DNA of 64,000 nucleotides from a phage: assembly GCA_012338575.1 (NCBI GenBank), contig GCA_012338575.1_3616.1; one strand, written 5' to 3'. Below the pieces are notes generated by a model. That model made no database searches. It saw only the letters and a list, made by a program, of their open reading frames with translations, and was not told the DNA's origin. The position numbers and the translations under genes were made by a program. This document shows positions 25,952-35,511 of the stretch, piece after piece (position 1 is the first letter of the stretch; each line of letters starts with the position of its first letter).

Positions 25952-26263
25952 TTATTTAGCAATCACTATAGAGTACTTACGATTGTCAGAAGCATCACAG
26001 CTCAATGATTGCCAGTCTACCACATACCACGTATCATTGTCAACAATTACTTTATCGCCTGTTCTGTAGCAGGTGCTGCTTTCAATAATCCGAGACTCGA
26101 TAAAGAATCTGTGTCGGCGCTCACGTAGCAACGCTAAGTTGATTATATTACCACCACTGTCCTTGATCCATACATTCTTGGATCCTTTATATGCCAAAAT
26201 TGTCTCGCCGTTATAGACAAACAGGCAGTATATTTTATTCAGTCTCTCTTGTATTGTAGCCAT
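25952..26263 (-). CDS. hypothetical protein (103 aa)
   Basis: ORF. Confidence 0.45.
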   Translation of the reverse strand: MATIQERLNKIYCLFVYNGETILAYKGSKNVWIKDSGGNIINLALLRERRHRFFIESRIIESSTCYRTGDKVIVDNDTWYVVDWQSLSCDASDNRKYSIVIAK

Positions 26264-26361
26264 ACTATCTCCCTCTCTTGTCAGATAATAATATCTAAAG
26301 CTTTACCTGTTTGTCAACAACTGTTTTAGATATTTAAGGGTGGAATAACCACCCTTCTGCA

Positions 26362-27150
26362 TTACTCGGAAACAGGGGTCCAAATATGATTTGCACGATC
26401 CTCAATAAGATTGAGTGCGATCTGACGGCCCAACCCGGAACGAACGACATCGTCTGGACTATCAAAGCTGATCATTCCAACCTCAGGATCTGGATGACGA
26501 GTAAAGAAATCCGTCACCCATGCAAGGCCAGATTTACCAGGGATGTCACGTTGGCTATTATCGCCCATAATTACAAGGGTGGCCTGATCAGAGATCCTTG
26601 TGATAATTGACAACATTTCTTCAGGGTTAGTTTGCTGTGCCTCGTCAATCAGGACAAAGCACCGCTCATCGAAACTACGACCACGAATGCTTTCAACTTC
26701 ACAAATCTCGATACGGCTGTTCTGACCGTCTCCCAGCATTGCGGCAAAAGCACCTTTGCCAACACGACGACAAATCGTGTCCATCATGCTACGAAGGTAA
26801 GGCCAAAGCTTCTGCATTGACGTTCCCGGTTTGTATCCGCTTGATTTTCCGGTCTGTACATAAGGACGTGCAACAATGATCTTATCAATCTCATTCTTAC
26901 GCAGAAGATCACCTGCATATGCAGATGCCATGAATGTCTTACCGGATCCAAACACACCGTTTACAATAATAATCTTACGTGACCCTAGATAATCAAGATA
27001 CTTTTGCTGCTTTTTATTCATCGGTCGGAGAGCTGGAGCGGTGTGCTCTCGTTCGTCAGCAAATTTCTCAGCAGCTTTACGCAGGCGATCAGATTTGCGA
27101 GCCTCTTTAGCTTCATCACGCATGCGTTTTGTTTCTTTAGCTCGACCCAT
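26362..27150 (-). CDS. phoH: PhoH-like ATPase
   Basis: Walker A GVFGSGKT, RGRSFDERCFVLIDEAQ and GDNSQRD motifs typical of PhoH. Confidence 0.7.
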   Translation of the reverse strand: MGRAKETKRMRDEAKEARKSDRLRKAAEKFADEREHTAPALRPMNKKQQKYLDYLGSRKIIIVNGVFGSGKTFMASAYAGDLLRKNEIDKIIVARPYVQTGKSSGYKPGTSMQKLWPYLRSMMDTICRRVGKGAFAAMLGDGQNSRIEICEVESIRGRSFDERCFVLIDEAQQTNPEEMLSIITRISDQATLVIMGDNSQRDIPGKSGLAWVTDFFTRHPDPEVGMISFDSPDDVVRSGLGRQIALNLIEDRANHIWTPVSE

Positions 27151-27188
27151 GTTGGGACTCCTTTCAGATTGAGATGTGTCTGGAACTT

Positions 27189-27539
27189 TTACTGCAACAG
27201 TTTTTCAATAGCCGCTTCCATGCTGCTTGCAACAGCCTGAACTCGGATATTCATCTCTTCTTGGTGGATCAGCTCCTTAAGCTCTTTAATGGTAAATTCT
27301 TTAGAGAAACCCTCCACCATAATCTTGTGCAAGGCTTCTTGCGTGTCTACTTGCAAGAACTTTTCCAGTTTGTTGGCAGAGGCTTCTAAATCAGCCCGAA
27401 TACGAGGGTCATCTGTGCGATTCAGCATTAGGCGTAAACCATCAAGATTAGTGGAAATAGCGTCTGCATGTTGAGTAACTAACCGTGGCAAAATGAGATC
27501 TACAAACTTATTAGCCAAATCGATACGTTCTTGTGTCAC
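27189..27539 (-). CDS. hypothetical protein (116 aa, GTG start)
   Basis: ORF. Confidence 0.45.
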   Translation of the reverse strand: MTQERIDLANKFVDLILPRLVTQHADAISTNLDGLRLMLNRTDDPRIRADLEASANKLEKFLQVDTQEALHKIMVEGFSKEFTIKELKELIHQEEMNIRVQAVASSMEAAIEKLLQ

Positions 27540-27649
27540 TGTTGCACCCCCTCTTCATCTTCATGATGTTTCTTTTCACGCTTGTGTTTTTTCTTAAGCT
27601 CAAGCGCAATCTCTTTCTTGTACGCCTTCTTCAAGGCTTTTTTAGCCAT
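27536..27649 (-). CDS. small lysine-rich protein (37 aa)
   Basis: ATG after AGGAGG (6-nt spacer); MAKKALKKAYKKEIALELKKKHKREKKHHEDEEGVQQ; stop overlaps downstream GTG; not in ORF track. Confidence 0.45.
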   Translation of the reverse strand: MAKKALKKAYKKEIALELKKKHKREKKHHEDEEGVQQ

Positions 27650-27711
27650 TTGGCACCTCCTCTGCTTTCATTACGACAATTATAACCAACTTAACAAAGC
27701 TTTGTCAACAA

Positions 27712-28185
27712 CTAGTCTACCTGAACCCAACCGCCTGATACTTTTTTAAACATTCTTTGGTTATCACTACCTCGGAACGGTTTCTTGGTTGGTAAATCTT
27801 TTACATACTTACCGTCAATGATGATATCAGCCAGTTTAAGAACATCACTAGAGATATGGTCAAATGTGAACCCAGTATATACAAGAATAGTTTTCTTGTC
27901 ACCAAATTTTTCCTTAATTTTCTCCATCAGGCTAATAATATCTGGCTCATTATAGTATGCTAAGGGTTCTCCACCCAGCAGAGAGATACCGCACACAGAC
28001 GGGTTATCTAAATCTGACAAGATTTTTTGCAAGTCTTCTTCAGTGAACTCCCTCCCCTTATCTTTTGACCAAAATGCCTGATTAAAGCAACCAGGGCAAG
28101 CGTGTGGGCACCCAGATACCCACAAGGCAGTTCTAATACCTGGCCCTTCGGTGTAAGATATTTCTGTGTATCCGACAATGTTCAT
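27712..28185 (-). CDS. nrdG: anaerobic ribonucleotide reductase activating protein (radical SAM)
   Basis: GPGIRTALWVSGCPHACPGCFN matches recalled E. coli NrdG GPGTRCTLFVSGCVHECPGCYN (CxxxCxxC cluster). Confidence 0.8.
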   Translation of the reverse strand: MNIVGYTEISYTEGPGIRTALWVSGCPHACPGCFNQAFWSKDKGREFTEEDLQKILSDLDNPSVCGISLLGGEPLAYYNEPDIISLMEKIKEKFGDKKTILVYTGFTFDHISSDVLKLADIIIDGKYVKDLPTKKPFRGSDNQRMFKKVSGGWVQVD

Positions 28186-28298
28186 AGATACTCCGCATCA
28201 CATTTAGGGCAATGCCAGATAAAATCGTCTAGTGCCTTGCACCAACGAAGATTGCAACTACAGCCGCACTTGCAAATTTTATAAATACCTGTAGACAT
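28182..28298 (-). CDS. small Cys-rich zinc-ribbon-like protein (38 aa)
   Basis: ATG after AGGAGG; MSTGIYKICKCGCSCNLRWCKALDDFIWHCPKCDAEYL (8 Cys); stop overlaps nrdG start (ATGA); not in ORF track. Confidence 0.5.
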   Translation of the reverse strand: MSTGIYKICKCGCSCNLRWCKALDDFIWHCPKCDAEYL

Positions 28299-28350
28299 AC
28301 TGTACCTCCTTAGTTTATAGCATGTTTAAGATATGTGTATCTTTCTACGA

Positions 28351-29283
28351 TCATTTACCACAAATCTTCTTGTATACCTCTTCTACCGTGTCAAACACTT
28401 CAGGCCTGTAGTAGAAAAACTCAGTGCTACCGTCAAATTTTACAGGAAAGTTTATTTTATACTTGCTGAAGGCCTTATGCACAGATTTTTCTAAATCTAC
28501 CATGTTTTGAGTTGATCCGCTCCACGTTTTTACTACGTGAAGAGTGTGGACACCTGCGCCAGATTTACGAGCACTGTTAAGCACCTCATTTTTCCTCCTG
28601 TGCATTTTAACGCATACACCGATTTTCATAAGTGTTGGCACTTCTAAGTCATCAACCATAATGTAGAGTTTACCGTACTCATGAGATAAGAATCCATTTT
28701 GTGCGCATTTACAGCAGCCACGACCACTTTTTAGGTTATTAGGTTTAGCAGACCACTTATACCCACAAATTTTGCACCTACATTGCACTTTTGTGTTATC
28801 ATTGGTAATTTTCTCTAATATTTCTATGTCTGGGTTGGCTTTGTGGATAATTGCAGCATGCTCCTTATGGGTTAACGCTTGACTTTGCCCACGTCTTAAG
28901 TCATAGCACTCTGGGCAGCCGTTTCTTTGGTATAAGTGGTTTTCAGGGTATTGTTCAAACACACCGTGTTCAGGGCAAACAATTTTTACAGGCGTTCTCA
29001 TGTTCGCATATTTGACTAATGAGTAATCGTACTTGTCCCCATGAGCAGCCATAGCCTCTTTTATGAACTCTTCAGTGTTCTTTTTCGCTGACCCACCACA
29101 CCTTGGACAACCATGCTTCTTGAAAGCATGTGCCACAGGGGTTTGCCAGAACTCACCGTGCTCAGGACAAATTATACACACAGGTGTCTTGTTGTTTTTA
29201 TACTCCACTTTGAAGTAATCATATTTGTCACCATGTATAGTCTGAGCTTTTTCTATAAACTCTTCGGTTGTTAGTCTCCTCAT
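28351..29283 (-). CDS. free-standing homing-endonuclease-like protein (GIY-YIG/T5orf172-like C-terminal domain, duplicated N-terminal zinc-ribbon repeats)
   Basis: Two tandem repeats of HGDKYDY...CPEHG.F...GCP.C; C-terminus GKLYIMVDD..LMKIGV...GSTEFFYY resembles GIY-YIG-like T5orf172 pattern (family assignment from memory). Confidence 0.5.
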   Translation of the reverse strand: MRRLTTEEFIEKAQTIHGDKYDYFKVEYKNNKTPVCIICPEHGEFWQTPVAHAFKKHGCPRCGGSAKKNTEEFIKEAMAAHGDKYDYSLVKYANMRTPVKIVCPEHGVFEQYPENHLYQRNGCPECYDLRRGQSQALTHKEHAAIIHKANPDIEILEKITNDNTKVQCRCKICGYKWSAKPNNLKSGRGCCKCAQNGFLSHEYGKLYIMVDDLEVPTLMKIGVCVKMHRRKNEVLNSARKSGAGVHTLHVVKTWSGSTQNMVDLEKSVHKAFSKYKINFPVKFDGSTEFFYYRPEVFDTVEEVYKKICGK

Positions 29284-29323
29284 TACCAGACCAGACCCTT
29301 CCGCTATTCACTTTATATTGCAT

Positions 29324-29350
29324 ACTATAGAAAAGAGGAATAGAAGTCAA
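29324..29350 (-). promoter_or_regulatory. sigma70-like promoter for the endonuclease-like gene (TTGACT, 15 bp, TATAGT)
   Basis: On minus strand TTGACT (29350-29345) and TATAGT (29329-29324). Confidence 0.4.
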
Positions 29351-29382
29351 TAAAAACAAAAAATGAGAGCATCCTTGCTCTC
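29351..29382 (-). terminator. rho-independent terminator after nrdD
   Basis: GAGAGC-aaggat-GCTCTC followed by ATTTTTTGTTTTT on minus strand. Confidence 0.65.
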
Positions 29383-29393
29383 AATCTCTTTCC

Positions 29394-30671
29394 TTATTTA
29401 CTCAACGGACACCAGTCTACATTCCCAACATGTTTAACACGTTCGATAACCTCTGCTTGTTTACCTGTGTTATACGGTCTACTGTTCGGGCTGGAGAGAT
29501 AGCCAGACACTCTTCGGATCACTGAGATATATTGTTCATCGTGGCATCCGCACGCAGGGCAGCAGAACCCTTTAGCTGTTGCACTGAACTCACCAGAGAA
29601 ACCACACTTAAGACATTTATCCACAGGTTGGTTAATACCAAAATACATAATGTGTTTATACCCGAAGTCAACAAGAGCCTCTAAAGCATCTAAGTTGTTT
29701 TTCAGATTTGGTGTCTCTACATATCCGATGTTGCCACCAGAGGAGATCATAGCAAAACCTTCCTCATACGCCCACTTATCAAAAGGAGAGCTATTGATCC
29801 ATACTGGCTGATGGAAACTGTTGGTGAGATATTCATGCTCGTGCTTCAACACTTCAGGATATTCACGATCCAGACAGGTTGCAGCTTTATAGCATAGACT
29901 CTCAGAAGGGGTGCCGTACAAGCTAAACGCTAGTCTACTTTCCTTCTTGTATCGCTCACAAGCATCTCTCATGTGCTGAAGGATTCCAAGAGCTAAAGCC
30001 TTGTCACCCTCTCTGCCCAAAATCTGACAGGTTTCATACACACCGATATACCCAATACTGATGGAAGCGTACCCGTCATAGAAGAGTTTATCAATACTCT
30101 CTTCAGGATCCAGGCGGGCAAGAGCGCCTTCACACCACATGATGGGGTTCTGCCCTGCCTTTGTTCCTTTTAGACGGTTAACCCTTACAAGGTGAGCCTC
30201 GTATGCAAGATCCAAGTATTCGTCAAGAACCGCAAAGAAATCAACACCTTCCGTCTTAGCTTTTGCCGCAATCATTGGCAGGTTAAGGCTAACAACACCC
30301 AAGTTGAATCTGCCAAGGTATTTCTCCTCACCTGTTTCCAAGTCATTGTATTTGCTAAGAAAACTCCGGCAACCCATGCTCGTTACTTTGCCATCTGTCG
30401 AGCCTGTCACTTTTCTATTTAGTGGTACAGATACGAAGTCAGGGTAGATACGTTCTGCACAGCATTCCAGAGCTAATCGTTTCAAATCATAGTTAGGATC
30501 CCCAGGGTTCATGTTGACACCCTCTTCCAGGAAGAACAGCACTTTAGGGAACACAGGTGTAATACGTTCTTCACCAAGACCCATTTTGTGGACTTTCAAG
30601 TAGTTTTTGGTAATCATTCTACCAAAGACCGAGGTATCCAGTCCTAAACTTAATGTGATAAAAGGGGTTTG
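29394..30671 (-). CDS. nrdD: anaerobic ribonucleoside-triphosphate reductase, exon 2 (glycyl-radical domain)
   Basis: Begins QTPFITLSLGLDTS (cf. recalled E. coli QTPFVTFGFGLGTS); contains GDPNYD, C-rich zinc site and RVSGYL glycyl-radical motif. Confidence 0.8.
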   Translation of the reverse strand, partial: QTPFITLSLGLDTSVFGRMITKNYLKVHKMGLGEERITPVFPKVLFFLEEGVNMNPGDPNYDLKRLALECCAERIYPDFVSVPLNRKVTGSTDGKVTSMGCRSFLSKYNDLETGEEKYLGRFNLGVVSLNLPMIAAKAKTEGVDFFAVLDEYLDLAYEAHLVRVNRLKGTKAGQNPIMWCEGALARLDPEESIDKLFYDGYASISIGYIGVYETCQILGREGDKALALGILQHMRDACERYKKESRLAFSLYGTPSESLCYKAATCLDREYPEVLKHEHEYLTNSFHQPVWINSSPFDKWAYEEGFAMISSGGNIGYVETPNLKNNLDALEALVDFGYKHIMYFGINQPVDKCLKCGFSGEFSATAKGFCCPACGCHDEQYISVIRRVSGYLSSPNSRPYNTGKQAEVIERVKHVGNVDWCPLSK

Positions 30672-30928
30672 CGGTCCCCACCCTTATGTTTCCACAAGGC
30701 CAGACTATCTCTTGCCTGAAATCACACCGTGTGATTCTTAATCAGACCTCTGCGTTTCGGAATCTTCCATAATCCCTACACCAAAAGGTTAGTCGTTACA
30801 ACCGCCTCACTCCTTGTGAAGCTAGTCACGGGATTGGCATAGCTTTCGCCTTAGCGTTCCCCGTTAGCCAGCGATCAGCTGACCCCTCATACTGAGGTTA
30901 GCAGAGTTTTAAAACGGCCAGTTTGTTA
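30672..30928 (-). mobile_element. group I intron (ORF-less, td-like core) interrupting nrdD
   Basis: 257 nt with no ORF; exon 1 ends in T, intron ends in G; contains AACGGGGAAC, CAATCCCGTG, AACGACTA, CCGAAACG, GATAGTCTGG strings recalled from the T4 td intron core; splicing restores a 712-aa NrdD. Confidence 0.75.
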
Positions 30929-31789
30929 ACCGTTGACAGAAGTTAACGTATTGATTTGATAGAGCAAAGTCTGCATGCTGTCAAATACGTCTTTATCTGT
31001 CATTTGCATTGCAACAGTTTCGGCATCTGGCAACCAATGTTCCTGGCAAAATTTAAGGTTCTTCTCATAGGTTGCTTCAACATACTGTGCCAGATAATGA
31101 TCAATATGGCTCATAGTCTGACCACCATATTGAGCACTAGCTACCGCACTGGAGATTTGGCTAAGGATTGTTGTTGCAACCCCTATTGACTTCGGCTTAC
31201 TGACATGAGCGTTACCAATGTTGAATCCGTTTTCCAACATATCTGGATAGTTTACCAAACAACAGTTTGTTAACGGACTGATCAAGTAGTCAAGATCATG
31301 CACATGGATGAAGCCTTTATTGTGCTCTTCTGAGACACGGTCTGGCAGGATCTGTGTTGATGCAAGGTGTTTGCTAAGGATGCCTGCAAGCAGGTCACGA
31401 TGAGTGTGTACATGATTGGTAGGCTTATTTGCGTTTTCTTTTGTAAATTCATCACAAGTGCGATCCAAGAAGCCACTAATATCTGCAAGCAGTTTTCCAC
31501 CTGCCTCTCTGTTATTATCTCTTGTCTGCCTATACTGGATGTATTCTCTGGCTGCACATTTTAAACCCATATCCATAAGAGCGTCTTCAACAAGGATATG
31601 GATATTTTTTACAGAGATCGTGCACTGGTCGGTTGGTAGATTGTTAGCAACAACTTCATTAACCGCGCAGGCGATCCGGTAAGCTTCTTCTTCAGTATGT
31701 CCAGACTCAAGTAAGGCGGACTCTGCCGCCTTGATCACCTTAATTCCGTTATAGACCTCTTCTCTGCCGTCCCGTTTTACAACTTTCAC
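30929..31789 (-). CDS. nrdD: anaerobic ribonucleoside-triphosphate reductase, exon 1 (ATP-cone and N-terminal half)
   Basis: MKVVKRDGREEVYNGIKV ATP-cone; HDLDY, GFNIGNAHVSKPKSI; ends ...NTLTSVNG as in recalled E. coli ...NTLHTANG. Confidence 0.8.
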
Positions 31790-32064
31790 TTTTTCTCTCC
31801 AAAATCATTCTTAACAAAAGAGATGAAATCGTCGGCACCACCTACATGGACACTATCAAGATCGCTTTCTAAGAAGATCTGCGGTAACGTTCTTGGGACG
31901 ATTGGACTACACTTCTCAATAAGCTCTTCTTTTGTGTATCCATCTCCAAGTGTCTTATATACAAAAGGCAGACCTTTACTGACTGCAAATTCTTTTGCTC
32001 TTACACAATGTGGGCAGTCATCTTTACCGTAAATAATAAAGAAAAAAGATTTTTCACAGCTCAT
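31786..32064 (-). CDS. glutaredoxin-like protein (CPHC active site)
   Basis: YGKDDCPHCVRAKEF thioredoxin-fold motif; ATGA overlap with nrdD start. Confidence 0.65.
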   Translation of the reverse strand: MSCEKSFFFIIYGKDDCPHCVRAKEFAVSKGLPFVYKTLGDGYTKEELIEKCSPIVPRTLPQIFLESDLDSVHVGGADDFISFVKNDFGEKK

Positions 32065-32067
32065 ATA

Positions 32068-33156
32068 TTAAAACTCCCAAATTTCTTCTTCAGCGTCGTT
32101 AACAGTTGTGTTGACTCGGTAGTCGGTGTTCGACATTTCCTGGTTAGCCGTCTGTTGCAATGAAGGTTTCATCCACACCTGCATAAACGGTAGCGGGTCC
32201 TTTGTTGGCGGCACAAAATCTTTGTCGATGTCGTAGTAATCATAAATCGGTGAGCAGTTATAGTCAACCCATTCTTTAAGCAACGGTGAGTTAAGACCTA
32301 TAATCGCTCTTCCTTCGCTGAAAATATAGTCACTCCAACCGTACTCCTTGGTTCGTACTTCATCAAGAATCTCTTTTAACTCTCCCTTTATCTCAAGGAA
32401 GCTTTTCTCCCATGCTGGATCATTAAGCAGGATATCAATGATGGCAAAATCACCTTTCGAATGCAGCATTTCGTCAAGCATGATTTTTTGAACAAGCTGC
32501 GCCACCTGAACAAAAATACCCTGTTCAGCTACTGCGAAAGTGCATGCAAAACTTGCAATAAACTCAATACTTTCTAGAGCTAAAAGTGCAAAAAGCGCTC
32601 TAAGAATGCATTTCCGCACAGTATCTTCTTCAACACTAGAAGGATCCAGTCGATATTTTGCACCAATAATCTCAAGCTCTTGCATGTATTTGACAATAAC
32701 TCCAGATCTGCTCAGTACGTTCTGGTTTTCCTGAATCTCTTCTATAATCTCCCGAGCATTAGGAAGGCATTGTCTAACAATCTCTGAGTAGGTTAGTGCG
32801 TGAAGAACTTCAATCTCTGACTGTTTCATCAATAGAGTGAAAAGCTCACTATTAGTGATGAATGGTGAAAAGAGGCAGATGATCGATCTTGCCGCAACGC
32901 TATCAGCCTCCCATTGCCACATCAAGGTCTGCACCATCACGTCATAAGTTGACTTGGAGCATGTTACAAAATCTGAAATAGATTGCGACAAATCCACTTC
33001 ATCCTCTGCCCAGTCTTGTTCTTTTTGTTTTTTGTACAGTTCGAACAGTTGTGGATATTTTTTGTTAATAGAGTCGTACATACCCATTTGCTGTCCTAAA
33101 AACAGCGGATAGTCACCAGTTTTATGAGCAGTGTTCTCAGCATTAAATACAGCCAT
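32068..33156 (-). CDS. nrdB: ribonucleotide reductase class Ia beta subunit
   Basis: 362 aa; position after nrdA; di-iron/tyrosyl radical protein-like composition and C-terminal EEEIWEF tail. Confidence 0.7.
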   Translation of the reverse strand: MAVFNAENTAHKTGDYPLFLGQQMGMYDSINKKYPQLFELYKKQKEQDWAEDEVDLSQSISDFVTCSKSTYDVMVQTLMWQWEADSVAARSIICLFSPFITNSELFTLLMKQSEIEVLHALTYSEIVRQCLPNAREIIEEIQENQNVLSRSGVIVKYMQELEIIGAKYRLDPSSVEEDTVRKCILRALFALLALESIEFIASFACTFAVAEQGIFVQVAQLVQKIMLDEMLHSKGDFAIIDILLNDPAWEKSFLEIKGELKEILDEVRTKEYGWSDYIFSEGRAIIGLNSPLLKEWVDYNCSPIYDYYDIDKDFVPPTKDPLPFMQVWMKPSLQQTANQEMSNTDYRVNTTVNDAEEEIWEF

Positions 33157-33195
33157 TATTCTACCTCTAAGACAGGGGCCGAAGCCCCTTTAAAA

Positions 33196-35511
33196 TTACA
33201 GTGCACAGCTTTCGCAATACGGATCTTCAACTGAACTATCTGCAATCAAAGGATAGTTCTTTCTGGTTTCATCTTCAGCTTGTTTCTTGGCATGAAGTTC
33301 CTCTGCCAAGGAGTCACCAGCACCAACTCTGGAGTTTAAATAATACCATGTCTTCATCCCGAATTTAGTGGCACGGATAAGGTACCCTAGCTGCTCCTTC
33401 ATTGAAATTTTACCATCTTTCAACTTGGTGTAGTCTATGTATAAATCCGCGCTGATTGCCTGGCCTGTGAATTTTTGAATCACAGCGTACATATCGATCA
33501 TATCGTTAGTATCAACGTCCCAAGCCGAAGTGTAATACTCTTTCAGCTCATCGTATTCAGGAACGATAAACAGCACCTGCCCTTGTGGCGATTTTTTAAA
33601 GATAATGTGCTCACGGACAGGATAAACCCCGTTAGTGGTGTTTGTTGCCAGCGAAGAGCTTTCATTAGGCATATATGCTTCAAGAACGCTATTACGTAGC
33701 CCACCGTTTTCAATGATTTCTTTACGTAACCCTTCCCAATCCTGTTTAAGAGAAGGATCTTTCACCACGCTATCGACCTCTTTGTTATAGGTGTCGATTG
33801 GTAACCAACCTTCTGGATATTTTGTTTTATGCATCCACTCGCAGACACCACGCTCTTTTGCCAACCGTAAACTTGCCTTATGCAAGCTGTAGCTGTGAAG
33901 TTCTGCAAGATCGTGAACAAGCTGTTTACTTTCAGGAGATCCGTAAGTAATCTTGTGGCTGGCAATAAAATGTGCAACGTTGGTAAGGCCAACCCCGATG
34001 GATCTGCGTTTTTTAACAGTGCTCTCCATATTTTCATACGGATATGTCATGATTTCCATAACATTGTCAATCATAAGCACCGTGTAGTATGCAACATCCT
34101 CATACTCTTCTGGAGTAACCCTTCCAGCTACAAGGGATGACAGGAAGCACAATGCAACTTCGCCGTCATCAACATCGTGCTTGAAGATATTACGCATATC
34201 TGAATAGCCTTTTGTCGGGAGGGCTATTTCTGCACACAGGTTACTTGAATAGATCACATCTTTAAAAGGTGTATGTCTATTCATCTCGTCTGTCCAGTAT
34301 ACGTACAGCCTTCCAACCTCAGTACGCTGCGTGATCAGCTCAACAGCAAGATCTCTAGCTCGGATCCATGTTTTAGGAATACTATCATCTTTAGCTATAC
34401 GATCAACCTCTGCATCAAACTCCTCCATAGACATGGTGAAGATACCTTCATGCAGTTGAGGCGCGTGCTTATAAGAAACAAGCATCCAATCTAAATTCTT
34501 AGCCACACGGTTGATAAACGACCTATTAATACCTATAGAGTAGTCCATGGTGTTGATTCTTTTTGAAGCAACAGTCATAGGGTTTCTCAAACGGATTAGC
34601 TCATCAATCTGCGGGTCTAGTGCAAGAAATGATACTGTTGCAGAACCGCCACGTGATTGTTGTCTGTTCTCCTTAACCCCAGCATCAATACCTCGATAAT
34701 ATGGAATCTTACCCATATGTTTAATAGTGTTACCACGAACACCATCGCCTGCAGATCTTGATGATAAATAGTAGCCGATACCTGCTTGGTTAACCGTCAT
34801 TGTGTACGCAACTTCACGTGCCACACCAATAGATTTTGCTGTATCGTCAGCTTTTATTACACAACAAGATGCATACCCTGTCTTACCTGTGCGCAGCCCG
34901 TTTAAGTACGGTGTCGGGGCATTGATCTTTAAGTCGGACAGATAAGTGTATAATTTTACAACATCGTTGATACGACGTTCTTTCGGCATATTCTTCATGA
35001 CAGCCATTGCTATCCCCATAAACATCATCTGAGGAGATTCAAACAAGGTGTCTTTAAGAGTATCCTTGATCCCGTATTTGTCGCGAAACTGTTTAAGGAC
35101 TGCATAGCCATAACCGAGATCTTTACTGTGATCAATAACAGTGCCTAAAGTGTTTAACTCGGTAAAGCTATAACCCATATCCTCCCAATACCCTTTCTCA
35201 ACCATGTCGTTGTAAAATGATGGTAAGGAAGGGATCTTTGTAAACCCTCCAAAAGCCTCTTTATAAATCTGACCAATAAGAACACGACCAGCCATACGGG
35301 AATGTGCTTCGTCTTTACGGCTAACACAGGAGTCTATAATAGCTTGGTTAACTTCTTTGGTTGTACATCCATCATACAGTCGTTTGTATGCATCCAGTGC
35401 AATATGTGACCAATTGCCGTTACCGTCGTCACCGAAAATAGCTGCCTTATTTAAACGTTCTGGATCGAATGCCACTTCACATCCGTTACTTTTAATTACC
35501 TTGGTGATCAA
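33196..35511 (-). CDS. nrdA: ribonucleotide reductase class Ia alpha subunit
   Basis: 771 aa; N-terminal ATP-cone (VIKSNGCEVAFDPERL); catalytic NLCAEIALPT motif. Confidence 0.85.
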   Translation of the reverse strand: MITKVIKSNGCEVAFDPERLNKAAIFGDDGNGNWSHIALDAYKRLYDGCTTKEVNQAIIDSCVSRKDEAHSRMAGRVLIGQIYKEAFGGFTKIPSLPSFYNDMVEKGYWEDMGYSFTELNTLGTVIDHSKDLGYGYAVLKQFRDKYGIKDTLKDTLFESPQMMFMGIAMAVMKNMPKERRINDVVKLYTYLSDLKINAPTPYLNGLRTGKTGYASCCVIKADDTAKSIGVAREVAYTMTVNQAGIGYYLSSRSAGDGVRGNTIKHMGKIPYYRGIDAGVKENRQQSRGGSATVSFLALDPQIDELIRLRNPMTVASKRINTMDYSIGINRSFINRVAKNLDWMLVSYKHAPQLHEGIFTMSMEEFDAEVDRIAKDDSIPKTWIRARDLAVELITQRTEVGRLYVYWTDEMNRHTPFKDVIYSSNLCAEIALPTKGYSDMRNIFKHDVDDGEVALCFLSSLVAGRVTPEEYEDVAYYTVLMIDNVMEIMTYPYENMESTVKKRRSIGVGLTNVAHFIASHKITYGSPESKQLVHDLAELHSYSLHKASLRLAKERGVCEWMHKTKYPEGWLPIDTYNKEVDSVVKDPSLKQDWEGLRKEIIENGGLRNSVLEAYMPNESSSLATNTTNGVYPVREHIIFKKSPQGQVLFIVPEYDELKEYYTSAWDVDTNDMIDMYAVIQKFTGQAISADLYIDYTKLKDGKISMKEQLGYLIRATKFGMKTWYYLNSRVGAGDSLAEELHAKKQAEDETRKNYPLIADSSVEDPYCESCAL

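Follow-up and report, generated by a model that had tools for sequence, protein, structure and literature searches.

A putative free-standing T5orf172 homing endonuclease gene and its cassette in the nrdD-nrdG gap of an rV5-like Vequintavirus

We analysed a 64,000-nt stretch of an rV5-like Vequintavirus (contig GCA_012338575.1_3616.1; hereafter the window), in which an open reading frame (ORF) on the minus strand between nrdD and nrdG (28351..29283) probably codes for a homing endonuclease that is free-standing (intron-less) and belongs to the T5orf172 branch within the GIY-YIG superfamily. A first-pass annotation had reached this reading from motifs, and it is supported on two counts: the Pfam family of the protein is not a non-nuclease family, and the gene is variably present among relatives. 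The putative homing endonuclease gene (HEG) lies within a larger segment with sharp breakpoints, which also carries a recoded nrdD 3′ end.

The ORF starts with ATG and encodes 310 aa plus a stop, as the first-pass annotation described it from the ORF list. An identical protein in NCBI is named 'DUF723 domain-containing protein' and homologues number in the thousands, so HEG is not a chance ORF; relatives in GenBank are named 'putative homing endonuclease' or 'GIY-YIG nuclease family protein', and PHROG 681 ('endonuclease') matches the protein at 2e-65, while an NCBIfam search returned no family. The N-terminal two thirds are predicted to comprise three zinc-binding modules. Modules 1 (29086..29283, minus strand; aa 1-66) and 2 (28888..29085, minus strand; aa 67-132) are zinc ribbons of putative DNA-binding function that align with ~30/57 identities (BLOSUM62 score 195), and HGDKYDY, CPEHG and GCPxC occur in both, so the two tandem units noted at first pass are real. 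Pfam DUF723 matches in two stretches (52.2 bits, cut-off 20.9), the best of them at aa 86-126 in module 2, and the predicted zinc ligands are C39, H42, C59 and C62 in module 1 and C103, H106, C123 and C126 in module 2. A third Cys-rich module (28690..28887, minus strand; aa 133-198), more diverged than the other two, is of the CapR/DUF4379 treble-clef type, with a CxxC ... CxC arrangement; within it, aa 151-195 match CapR (40.6 bits, cut-off 24.2; 2.9e-10) and the DUF4379 treble clef (38.8 bits, cut-off 24.5; 1.1e-9). Zinc ligands are conserved across all three modules in 22 homologues, with C39, C59, C62, C103, C126, C190 and C193 invariant and C123 and C170 nearly so. The remainder of the protein (28354..28689, minus strand; aa 199-310) is a T5orf172 nuclease domain with key residues Y207, K220, G222, R230, E265, H269 and E288. 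A Pfam search with hidden Markov models places PF10544 (T5orf172) at aa 207-307, covering profile positions 4-100 of 101 at 32.9 bits (cut-off 20; E 9.3e-8), which bears out the first-pass assignment; the related profile MUG113 scores 21.1, slightly below its cut-off of 22.3.

Structure prediction and residue conservation agree with this assignment. An AlphaFold2 (AF2) model of the HEG protein made from 22 full-length homologues has a mean predicted local distance difference test score (pLDDT) of 88.8, rising to ~94 in the C-terminal domain, and has the alpha/beta fold of the GIY-YIG superfamily. The figures listed with this model are 7.3 and 7.1 for Slx1, 6.7 for At-HIGLE, 4.9 for the I-TevI catalytic domain, 4.4 for the AtGRXS16 N-domain, 4.1 for PD-T4-3, 3.9 for Eco29kI, 3.6 for T4 EndoII and 3.4 for UvrC. 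A PDB sequence search with the HEG protein found no match even at E ≤ 10. Among the 22 homologues there is no variation at Y207, K220, G222, E265, G285, E288 or F290, and hardly any at R230 and H269. Three positions were taken as catalytic, namely the first-strand Tyr, the helix-1 Arg and the Glu that corresponds to E75 of I-TevI and E180 of ICP1 Odn, and the T5orf172 domain has the expected residue at each of them (Y207, R230 and E265). Odn (gp88) is the one T5orf172 protein shown to cut DNA, and its E180A mutant does not cut in vitro (PMC8263062). Its T5orf172 domain scores 33.3 bits in Pfam, against 32.9 for that of HEG, and the Y, K-x-G, R, E, H and E-x-F residues of the two proteins align; in a multiple alignment Y207, E265, H269 and E288 are matched by Odn Y125, E180, H184 and E202. 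BLASTP aligns HEG and Odn in the same register, albeit weakly (E 0.26, 19% over 95 aa).

HEG is polymorphic in presence at a single locus among close relatives. The window region is 97-98% identical to rV5-like phages, with Shigella phage CM1 and Escherichia phage navn as top matches. A 501-bp probe across the nrdD-nrdG junction of RudolfGeigy, which lacks HEG, matches 120 Vequintavirus phage records, and in 91 of these the junction is uninterrupted. The HEG allele is found at ≥95% aa identity in 19 phage records, so its occurrence in the nrd region is patchy rather than conserved; within one species, it is present in nomine and the site is empty in APECc02. Eleven of the 19 carrier records form one batch labelled 'Campylobacter phage', and the number of independent isolates is therefore smaller than 19. 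The records of this label (MG065644-MG065690) give C. jejuni as host, are unannotated and are ~97% identical to E. coli rV5-like phages; the host label is doubtful. About 8 more Vequintaviruses, including phiWec189, nom, WalterGehring, SophiaRose, JEP1, ECML-10 and Mangalyan, have homologues of 44-53% aa identity in the same gap, and all of these diverged alleles that were tested consist of zinc-finger modules plus T5orf172. Two copies of the window allele depart from full length. That of CM1 (locus L002) has one extra A in an A-run at HEG nt 793, causing a frameshift just past E265 that cuts the nuclease domain short and reflects either a decaying copy or a sequencing error; the match to the PMBT16 copy is limited to aa 15-310.

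The inserted segment is larger than the HEG ORF, as shown by a loss of homology from 28311 to 29430 and a recoded nrdD tract reaching to ~29502. Boundaries were taken from blastn and codon-level comparison, because a MAFFT alignment misplaced the nrdD ends. In blastn of the window against empty-site phages, homology ends at 28310 and resumes at 29431, leaving a segment of 1120 bp (28311..29430, minus strand) without BLAST-detectable homology to empty sites, in place of 73 bp of RudolfGeigy (1214-1286 of its locus, L001). The left breakpoint (29431) falls within nrdD. The 100 bp of homologous sequence that adjoin it contain 19 mismatches to RudolfGeigy, and sequence further away ~2 per 100 bp, which delimits a recoded nrdD 3′ end (29394..29502, minus strand) that runs from the glycyl-radical Gly codon of RVSGYL to a new C-terminus ending in KHVGNVDWCPLSK. 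The differences in this tract of 105 nt are almost wholly synonymous: in the stretch bounded by the RVSGYL Gly codon and the ERVKH His codon, 15/17 changed codons are synonymous, including AGT/TCC (Ser) and AGA/CGT (Arg) exchanges, and the tail of empty-site phages differs from that of the window at 20 of 87 nt, although the remaining nrdD differs by only 2-3%. The tract encodes the glycyl-radical segment of NrdD, which is conserved at the protein level in >2000 phage records. Past the His codon, the window protein ends in KHVGNVDWCPLSK and that of empty-site phages in KHYGSCGC. The new C-terminus is itself polymorphic (29397-29420), reading VDWCPLSK in the window and navn, VDCCPLSK in CM1, nomine and WM, and VDCCPLSR in a metagenomic contig described below (L011), so that the window tail has one Cys fewer than the VDCCPLSK carriers.

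The recoded tail and HEG go together. All carriers fetched (CM1, navn, nomine and WM) have the recoded tail, and the standard tail is found in empty-site phages and in carriers of other alleles, JEP1 excepted. When the tail and the intergenic region were searched together, exactly 19 records matched, the same number as that of HEG carriers, and empty-site phages matched only the first 100 nt of this probe, at 80-81%. The tract is thus linked to HEG in 19/19 carrier records and is absent elsewhere apart from the JEP1 chimera. In JEP1 (locus L009), the first half of the nrdD tail is recoded and the second half standard, and a different HEG allele (46% aa identity) lies downstream, which suggests that one cassette overwrote another. 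A 'distant' blastn search of the phage collection for a donor of the recoded tail gave only the 19 carriers and, in part, JEP1.

The cassette is better conserved than the genomes around it. Among the five carriers compared in detail it is 98.8-99.6% identical, yet nrdG of WM and nomine is only ~90% identical to that of the window, and nrdG of the HEG-less RudolfGeigy is 99.2% identical. A near-identical cassette beside so divergent an nrdG indicates that the genomic background of the cassette differs among carriers, which is what an element moving by recombination should show. An older history is seen in L011, a 141-kb metagenomic contig (Logan SRR25011148) that is ~75% identical to the window over nrdD. 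L011 has a HEG orthologue (75% aa identity) at the same position and shares an extended NrdD tail (KHVGNVDCCPLSR), the terminator and a promoter-like site, indicating a long-standing presence of the gene at this site in the wider group. As a direct donor of the recoded tail L011 was rejected: it has 57/87 identities to the window tail, whereas the standard tail has 67/87, and informative sites are split 6 to 5. The window HEG is moreover a mosaic, in which the finger-coding 70% is closest to L011 (76-85% nt identity) and the nuclease-coding 30% reaches 83% nt identity to phiWec189, JEP1 and nom, against 63-72% to L011.

The cassette also carries candidate expression signals upstream of HEG. 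An intrinsic terminator follows nrdD (29354..29383, minus strand; 8-bp stem, 4-nt loop and T-run), its hairpin occupying 29364-29383 and followed by TTTTTTGTTT. It is found in all carriers, with a T-run of variable length, and L011 retains it with compensating changes in the stem; the hairpin at empty sites is another one, GCCACAAGGATGTGGC, and lacks a T-run. Next to it is a promoter-like site (29322..29350, minus strand) that reads TTGACT followed by either N17-TAGTAT or N15-TATAGT. The window and the four other aligned carriers do not differ at this site, and it is kept in L011 and L012 (~75% identical) as TTGACT-N17-TATGCT. Conservation of hairpin, T-run, -35 and -10 in L011 supports both signals as functional parts of the cassette, and use of the site as the HEG promoter is plausible. 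The first-pass annotation had described HEG as bracketed by a terminator at 29351-29382 and a TTGACT/TATAGT promoter. The hairpin and its T-run are real, but they lie upstream of HEG, where they would end nrdD transcription. Likewise, both promoter hexamers are present (TTGACT at 29345-29350 and TATAGT at 29324-29329) and the site is kept in L011, but the spacer of this pair is only 15, a promoter scan favours TAGTAT at 29322-29327 (spacer 17; score 9/12), and the promoter match taken alone is at chance level. With both signals upstream of the gene and no terminator candidate with a good T-run 3′ of it, the bracketing does not hold, and we infer that the HEG transcript should run on into a 38-aa ORF and nrdG. 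Nor is the 'otherwise coupled' nrd operon of that description established, given that the hairpin at empty sites lacks a T-run and that another annotator predicted a promoter in the empty nrdD-nrdG gap.

Taken as a homing endonuclease, HEG would act as follows. The three ~66-aa zinc-ribbon modules (two DUF723-type and one CapR/DUF4379-type) would bind a long DNA site, near which the C-terminal T5orf172 domain would cut. During mixed infection, its cut would fall in the allele of a related phage without HEG, most probably in or beside the nrdD 3′ end (the RVSGYL...ERVKH segment), and repair of the break would use the HEG-carrying genome as template. Repair would copy the whole cassette, comprising the recoded nrdD tail with its new C-terminus, the terminator, the promoter-like site and HEG, and the recoded tail would leave carriers uncuttable. 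The cassette terminator would then end nrdD transcription, and the cassette promoter would drive HEG and, by read-through, the 38-aa ORF and nrdG. On this account the target is probably the conserved nrdD 3′ end of HEG-less relatives. Homing with co-conversion predicts the sharp breakpoints, the synonymous gradient in nrdD and a cassette conserved above its flanks.

Variation within the gap raises a further conjecture, which we hold only tentatively and consider on balance improbable: that the nrdD-nrdG gap of Vequintaviruses is a site of endonuclease succession, at which alleles displace one another, each recognizing a variant of the nrdD tail or intergenic region left by the empty site or by a rival allele. 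The alleles in the gap have related nuclease domains, different zinc-finger arrays and different left junctions, and succession would account for the chimeric nrdD tail of JEP1 and the mosaic window HEG.

Several observations weigh against the homing reading or parts of it. Searched against the PDB with Foldseek, the model had no match at E ≤ 0.001, its best hits at domain level being to Slx1 at E 0.2-0.4. Promoter-like sites in the region number 11, compared with 8.8 expected by chance. The target position is inferred solely from where the recoded tract lies, and the tract could be merely co-converted donor sequence with no role in immunity; nuclease activity, immunity through recoding, use of the promoter and present-day mobility are all predictions. 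Close HEG copies differ by 4-9 substitutions, among which non-synonymous changes equal or outnumber synonymous ones (3:1 to 6:3), and some copies may be decaying, given these counts and the CM1 frameshift. Finally, part of the HEG polymorphism could reflect loss, given the old L011 orthologue.

This last point leads to the strongest of the alternatives, which we nonetheless consider unlikely: that HEG is an old resident of the gap, made patchy by repeated loss or ordinary recombination rather than by endonuclease-driven homing. Besides the orthologue, tail, terminator and promoter-like site in place in L011, it is consistent with an orthologue divergence similar to that of the flanking nrdD and with a window tail whose conserved part resembles L011 no more than that of the standard tail does (6 versus 5 informative sites). 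However, empty sites are not simple deletions of the cassette, because they have a different nrdD tail while the rest of nrdD is nearly the same; the cassette is almost identical in genomes whose nrdG differs by 10%; and several diverged alleles occupy the same gap. Together, these three features require horizontal exchange focused on this spot.

Somewhat less probable still is that the protein has been domesticated and serves the phage, as an nrd regulator resembling CapR or as a nuclease against satellites or competitors resembling Odn. Domestication is documented in the family (CapR, PMC8096241; Odn, PMC8263062), Barth et al. caution that homing cannot be inferred from sequence alone (PMC10448857), and the cassette probably supplies a promoter that reads into nrdG. 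Yet a full nuclease domain with all conserved residues is retained, unlike in a pure repressor, and the N-terminal modules are zinc fingers typical of HEGs rather than a captured RepA_N-type domain. Absence from three quarters of close relatives marks the gene as dispensable, and neither a regulator nor an anti-satellite nuclease would be expected to have a linked recoded tract in the neighbouring nrdD.

We regard as very unlikely that the window copy is an inactive relic of a once-mobile element. The excess or parity of non-synonymous changes among close copies, the CM1 frameshift and the PMBT16 match starting at aa 15 could be read in that way, but the window ORF is uninterrupted and retains every zinc ligand and every catalytic-position residue, and copies differ by too few substitutions for the counts to show relaxed selection. 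Collaborative homing, in which a free-standing endonuclease acts together with an ORF-less intron, is known for F-CphI and psbA. For HEG and the ORF-less nrdD intron it was rejected, because the intron occurs without HEG in RudolfGeigy and a related allele occurs with an intronless nrdD in phiWec189, and because the gradient of divergence implicates the 3′ end of nrdD, at a distance of 1.2 kb from the intron.

The order of genes along the minus strand is nrdB, glutaredoxin, nrdD, HEG, a 38-aa Cys-rich ORF, nrdG and phoH. The nrdD gene (29394..31789, minus strand) consists of exon 1 (30930-31789), an intron (30673-30929) and exon 2 (29394-30672). The intron is of group I and has no ORF, with limits set from the intronless nrdD of phiWec189. 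A permissive Rfam search gave RF00028 at 29.2 bits (E 1.5e-5) over the full model length, with the signal at 30682-30938, below the gathering score of 50; at gathering thresholds Rfam reported no intron in 26000-34000, and it found no RNA family in 28100-29550 at E ≤ 0.1. HEG as an intron-encoded endonuclease was ruled out, because it sits between the nrdD stop and the next ORF and the sole group I signal has no ORF. Relatives vary in their introns: this nrdD intron contains an HNH gene in slur16 and nomine, a second, HNH-containing intron is found in nrdD exon 2 of navn, WM and JEP1, and phiWec189 has none.

HEG does lie in the gap between nrdD and nrdG, as first described, but the gene immediately downstream is the 38-aa ORF (28182..28298, minus strand) and not nrdG (27712..28185, minus strand), a radical-SAM activase gene with Pfam matches to Fer4_12 (9e-43) and Radical_SAM. 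The 38-aa ORF, whose stop overlaps the nrdG start (ATGA), is context outside the cassette and is present in every Vequintavirus locus examined. It encodes seven Cys (MSTGIYKICKCGCSCNLRWCKALDDFIWHCPKCDAEYL) and matches PHROG 20137 ('ribonucleotide reductase') at 2.6e-30 and no Pfam family; its product may be a small zinc-binding partner of NrdD and NrdG. In L011 (3983-4141) the small ORF between HEG and nrdG is 52 aa long and matches Pfam DUF8272, and in nomine (883-1119 of locus L006) a further variable insert, a 78-aa ORF with the annotation 'putative minor capsid protein', separates the small Cys-rich ORF from nrdG. In rV5 (NC_011041) and about 10 others, APECc02 and DrSchubert among them, the junction probe is unmatched over its first 92 bases (the nrdG 5′ end), so the nrdG side of the locus likewise varies among Vequintaviruses. 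No second HEG copy was found within the 64-kb window, and four ORFs of 51-54 aa that lie inside HEG on the opposite strand have no PHROG family. The G+C content of HEG (0.38-0.41) gives no clear foreign signal relative to nrdG (0.38) and nrdD (0.43-0.47).

HEG follows a pattern familiar from other phages. In T4-like phages, free-standing GIY-YIG and HNH endonucleases such as the Seg proteins, and MobE between nrdA and nrdB, cleave the adjacent gene in relatives that lack them, and flanking markers are co-converted as they spread. The window HEG matches these Seg and MobE genes in being intron-less and lying between conserved genes, which are often nrd genes. Its closest counterparts in architecture are the T5orf172 HEGs of ICP1 and other phages, which have the same array of fingers ahead of a C-terminal T5orf172 domain and are likewise free-standing, variably present, near ribonucleotide reductase (RNR) genes and module-shuffled between alleles. 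HEGs of this class with repeated CapR, DUF723 and DUF4379 fingers have been described, with RNR genes in 33% of neighbourhoods, variable presence among isolates and shuffling of modules (Barth, Dunham & Seed 2023, PMC10448857). Like most of the ICP1 T5orf172 genes, the window HEG is a putative homing gene. The present case differs from those of Barth et al. in its host lineage, Vequintavirus, which is absent from that paper, in the base-level signature of its flank (the recoded nrdD tail and new C-terminus) and in its series of alleles in one gap. Odn differs from HEG in having a RepA_N-like (DUF6945) DNA-binding domain and in attacking a satellite replication origin, and it is not a homing element. 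PLE CapR, whose Cys residues are needed for DNA binding (PMC8096241), has a zinc-finger homology domain matched by HEG module 3, but it is a stand-alone DNA-binding repressor of a phage satellite, whereas the window protein retains a nuclease domain.

A literature search found no paper on this particular HEG. The class and its preference for RNR genes are already published and the general picture is unchanged; what is added here are base-level boundaries, a recoded glycyl-radical tail with a new NrdD C-terminus, and an allele series in a single gap. For annotation, the gene, a 'hypothetical protein' in the 11 GenBank records that annotate this allele, can be named a putative T5orf172-type homing endonuclease, and the odd NrdD C-terminus of carriers becomes understandable as part of a mobile cassette. 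The nrd region of rV5-like phages is a mosaic of up to two nrdD introns, HNH genes and the cassette, and is therefore best not used as a phylogenetic marker. The locus offers a clean test case for the little-studied T5orf172 class, with close phages that carry or lack HEG and grow on E. coli K-12, a candidate target narrowed to ~100 bp and alleles with different finger arrays at hand. If endonuclease succession is true, the DNA sequence specificity of each 66-aa finger module could be read from the allele series as a natural data set.

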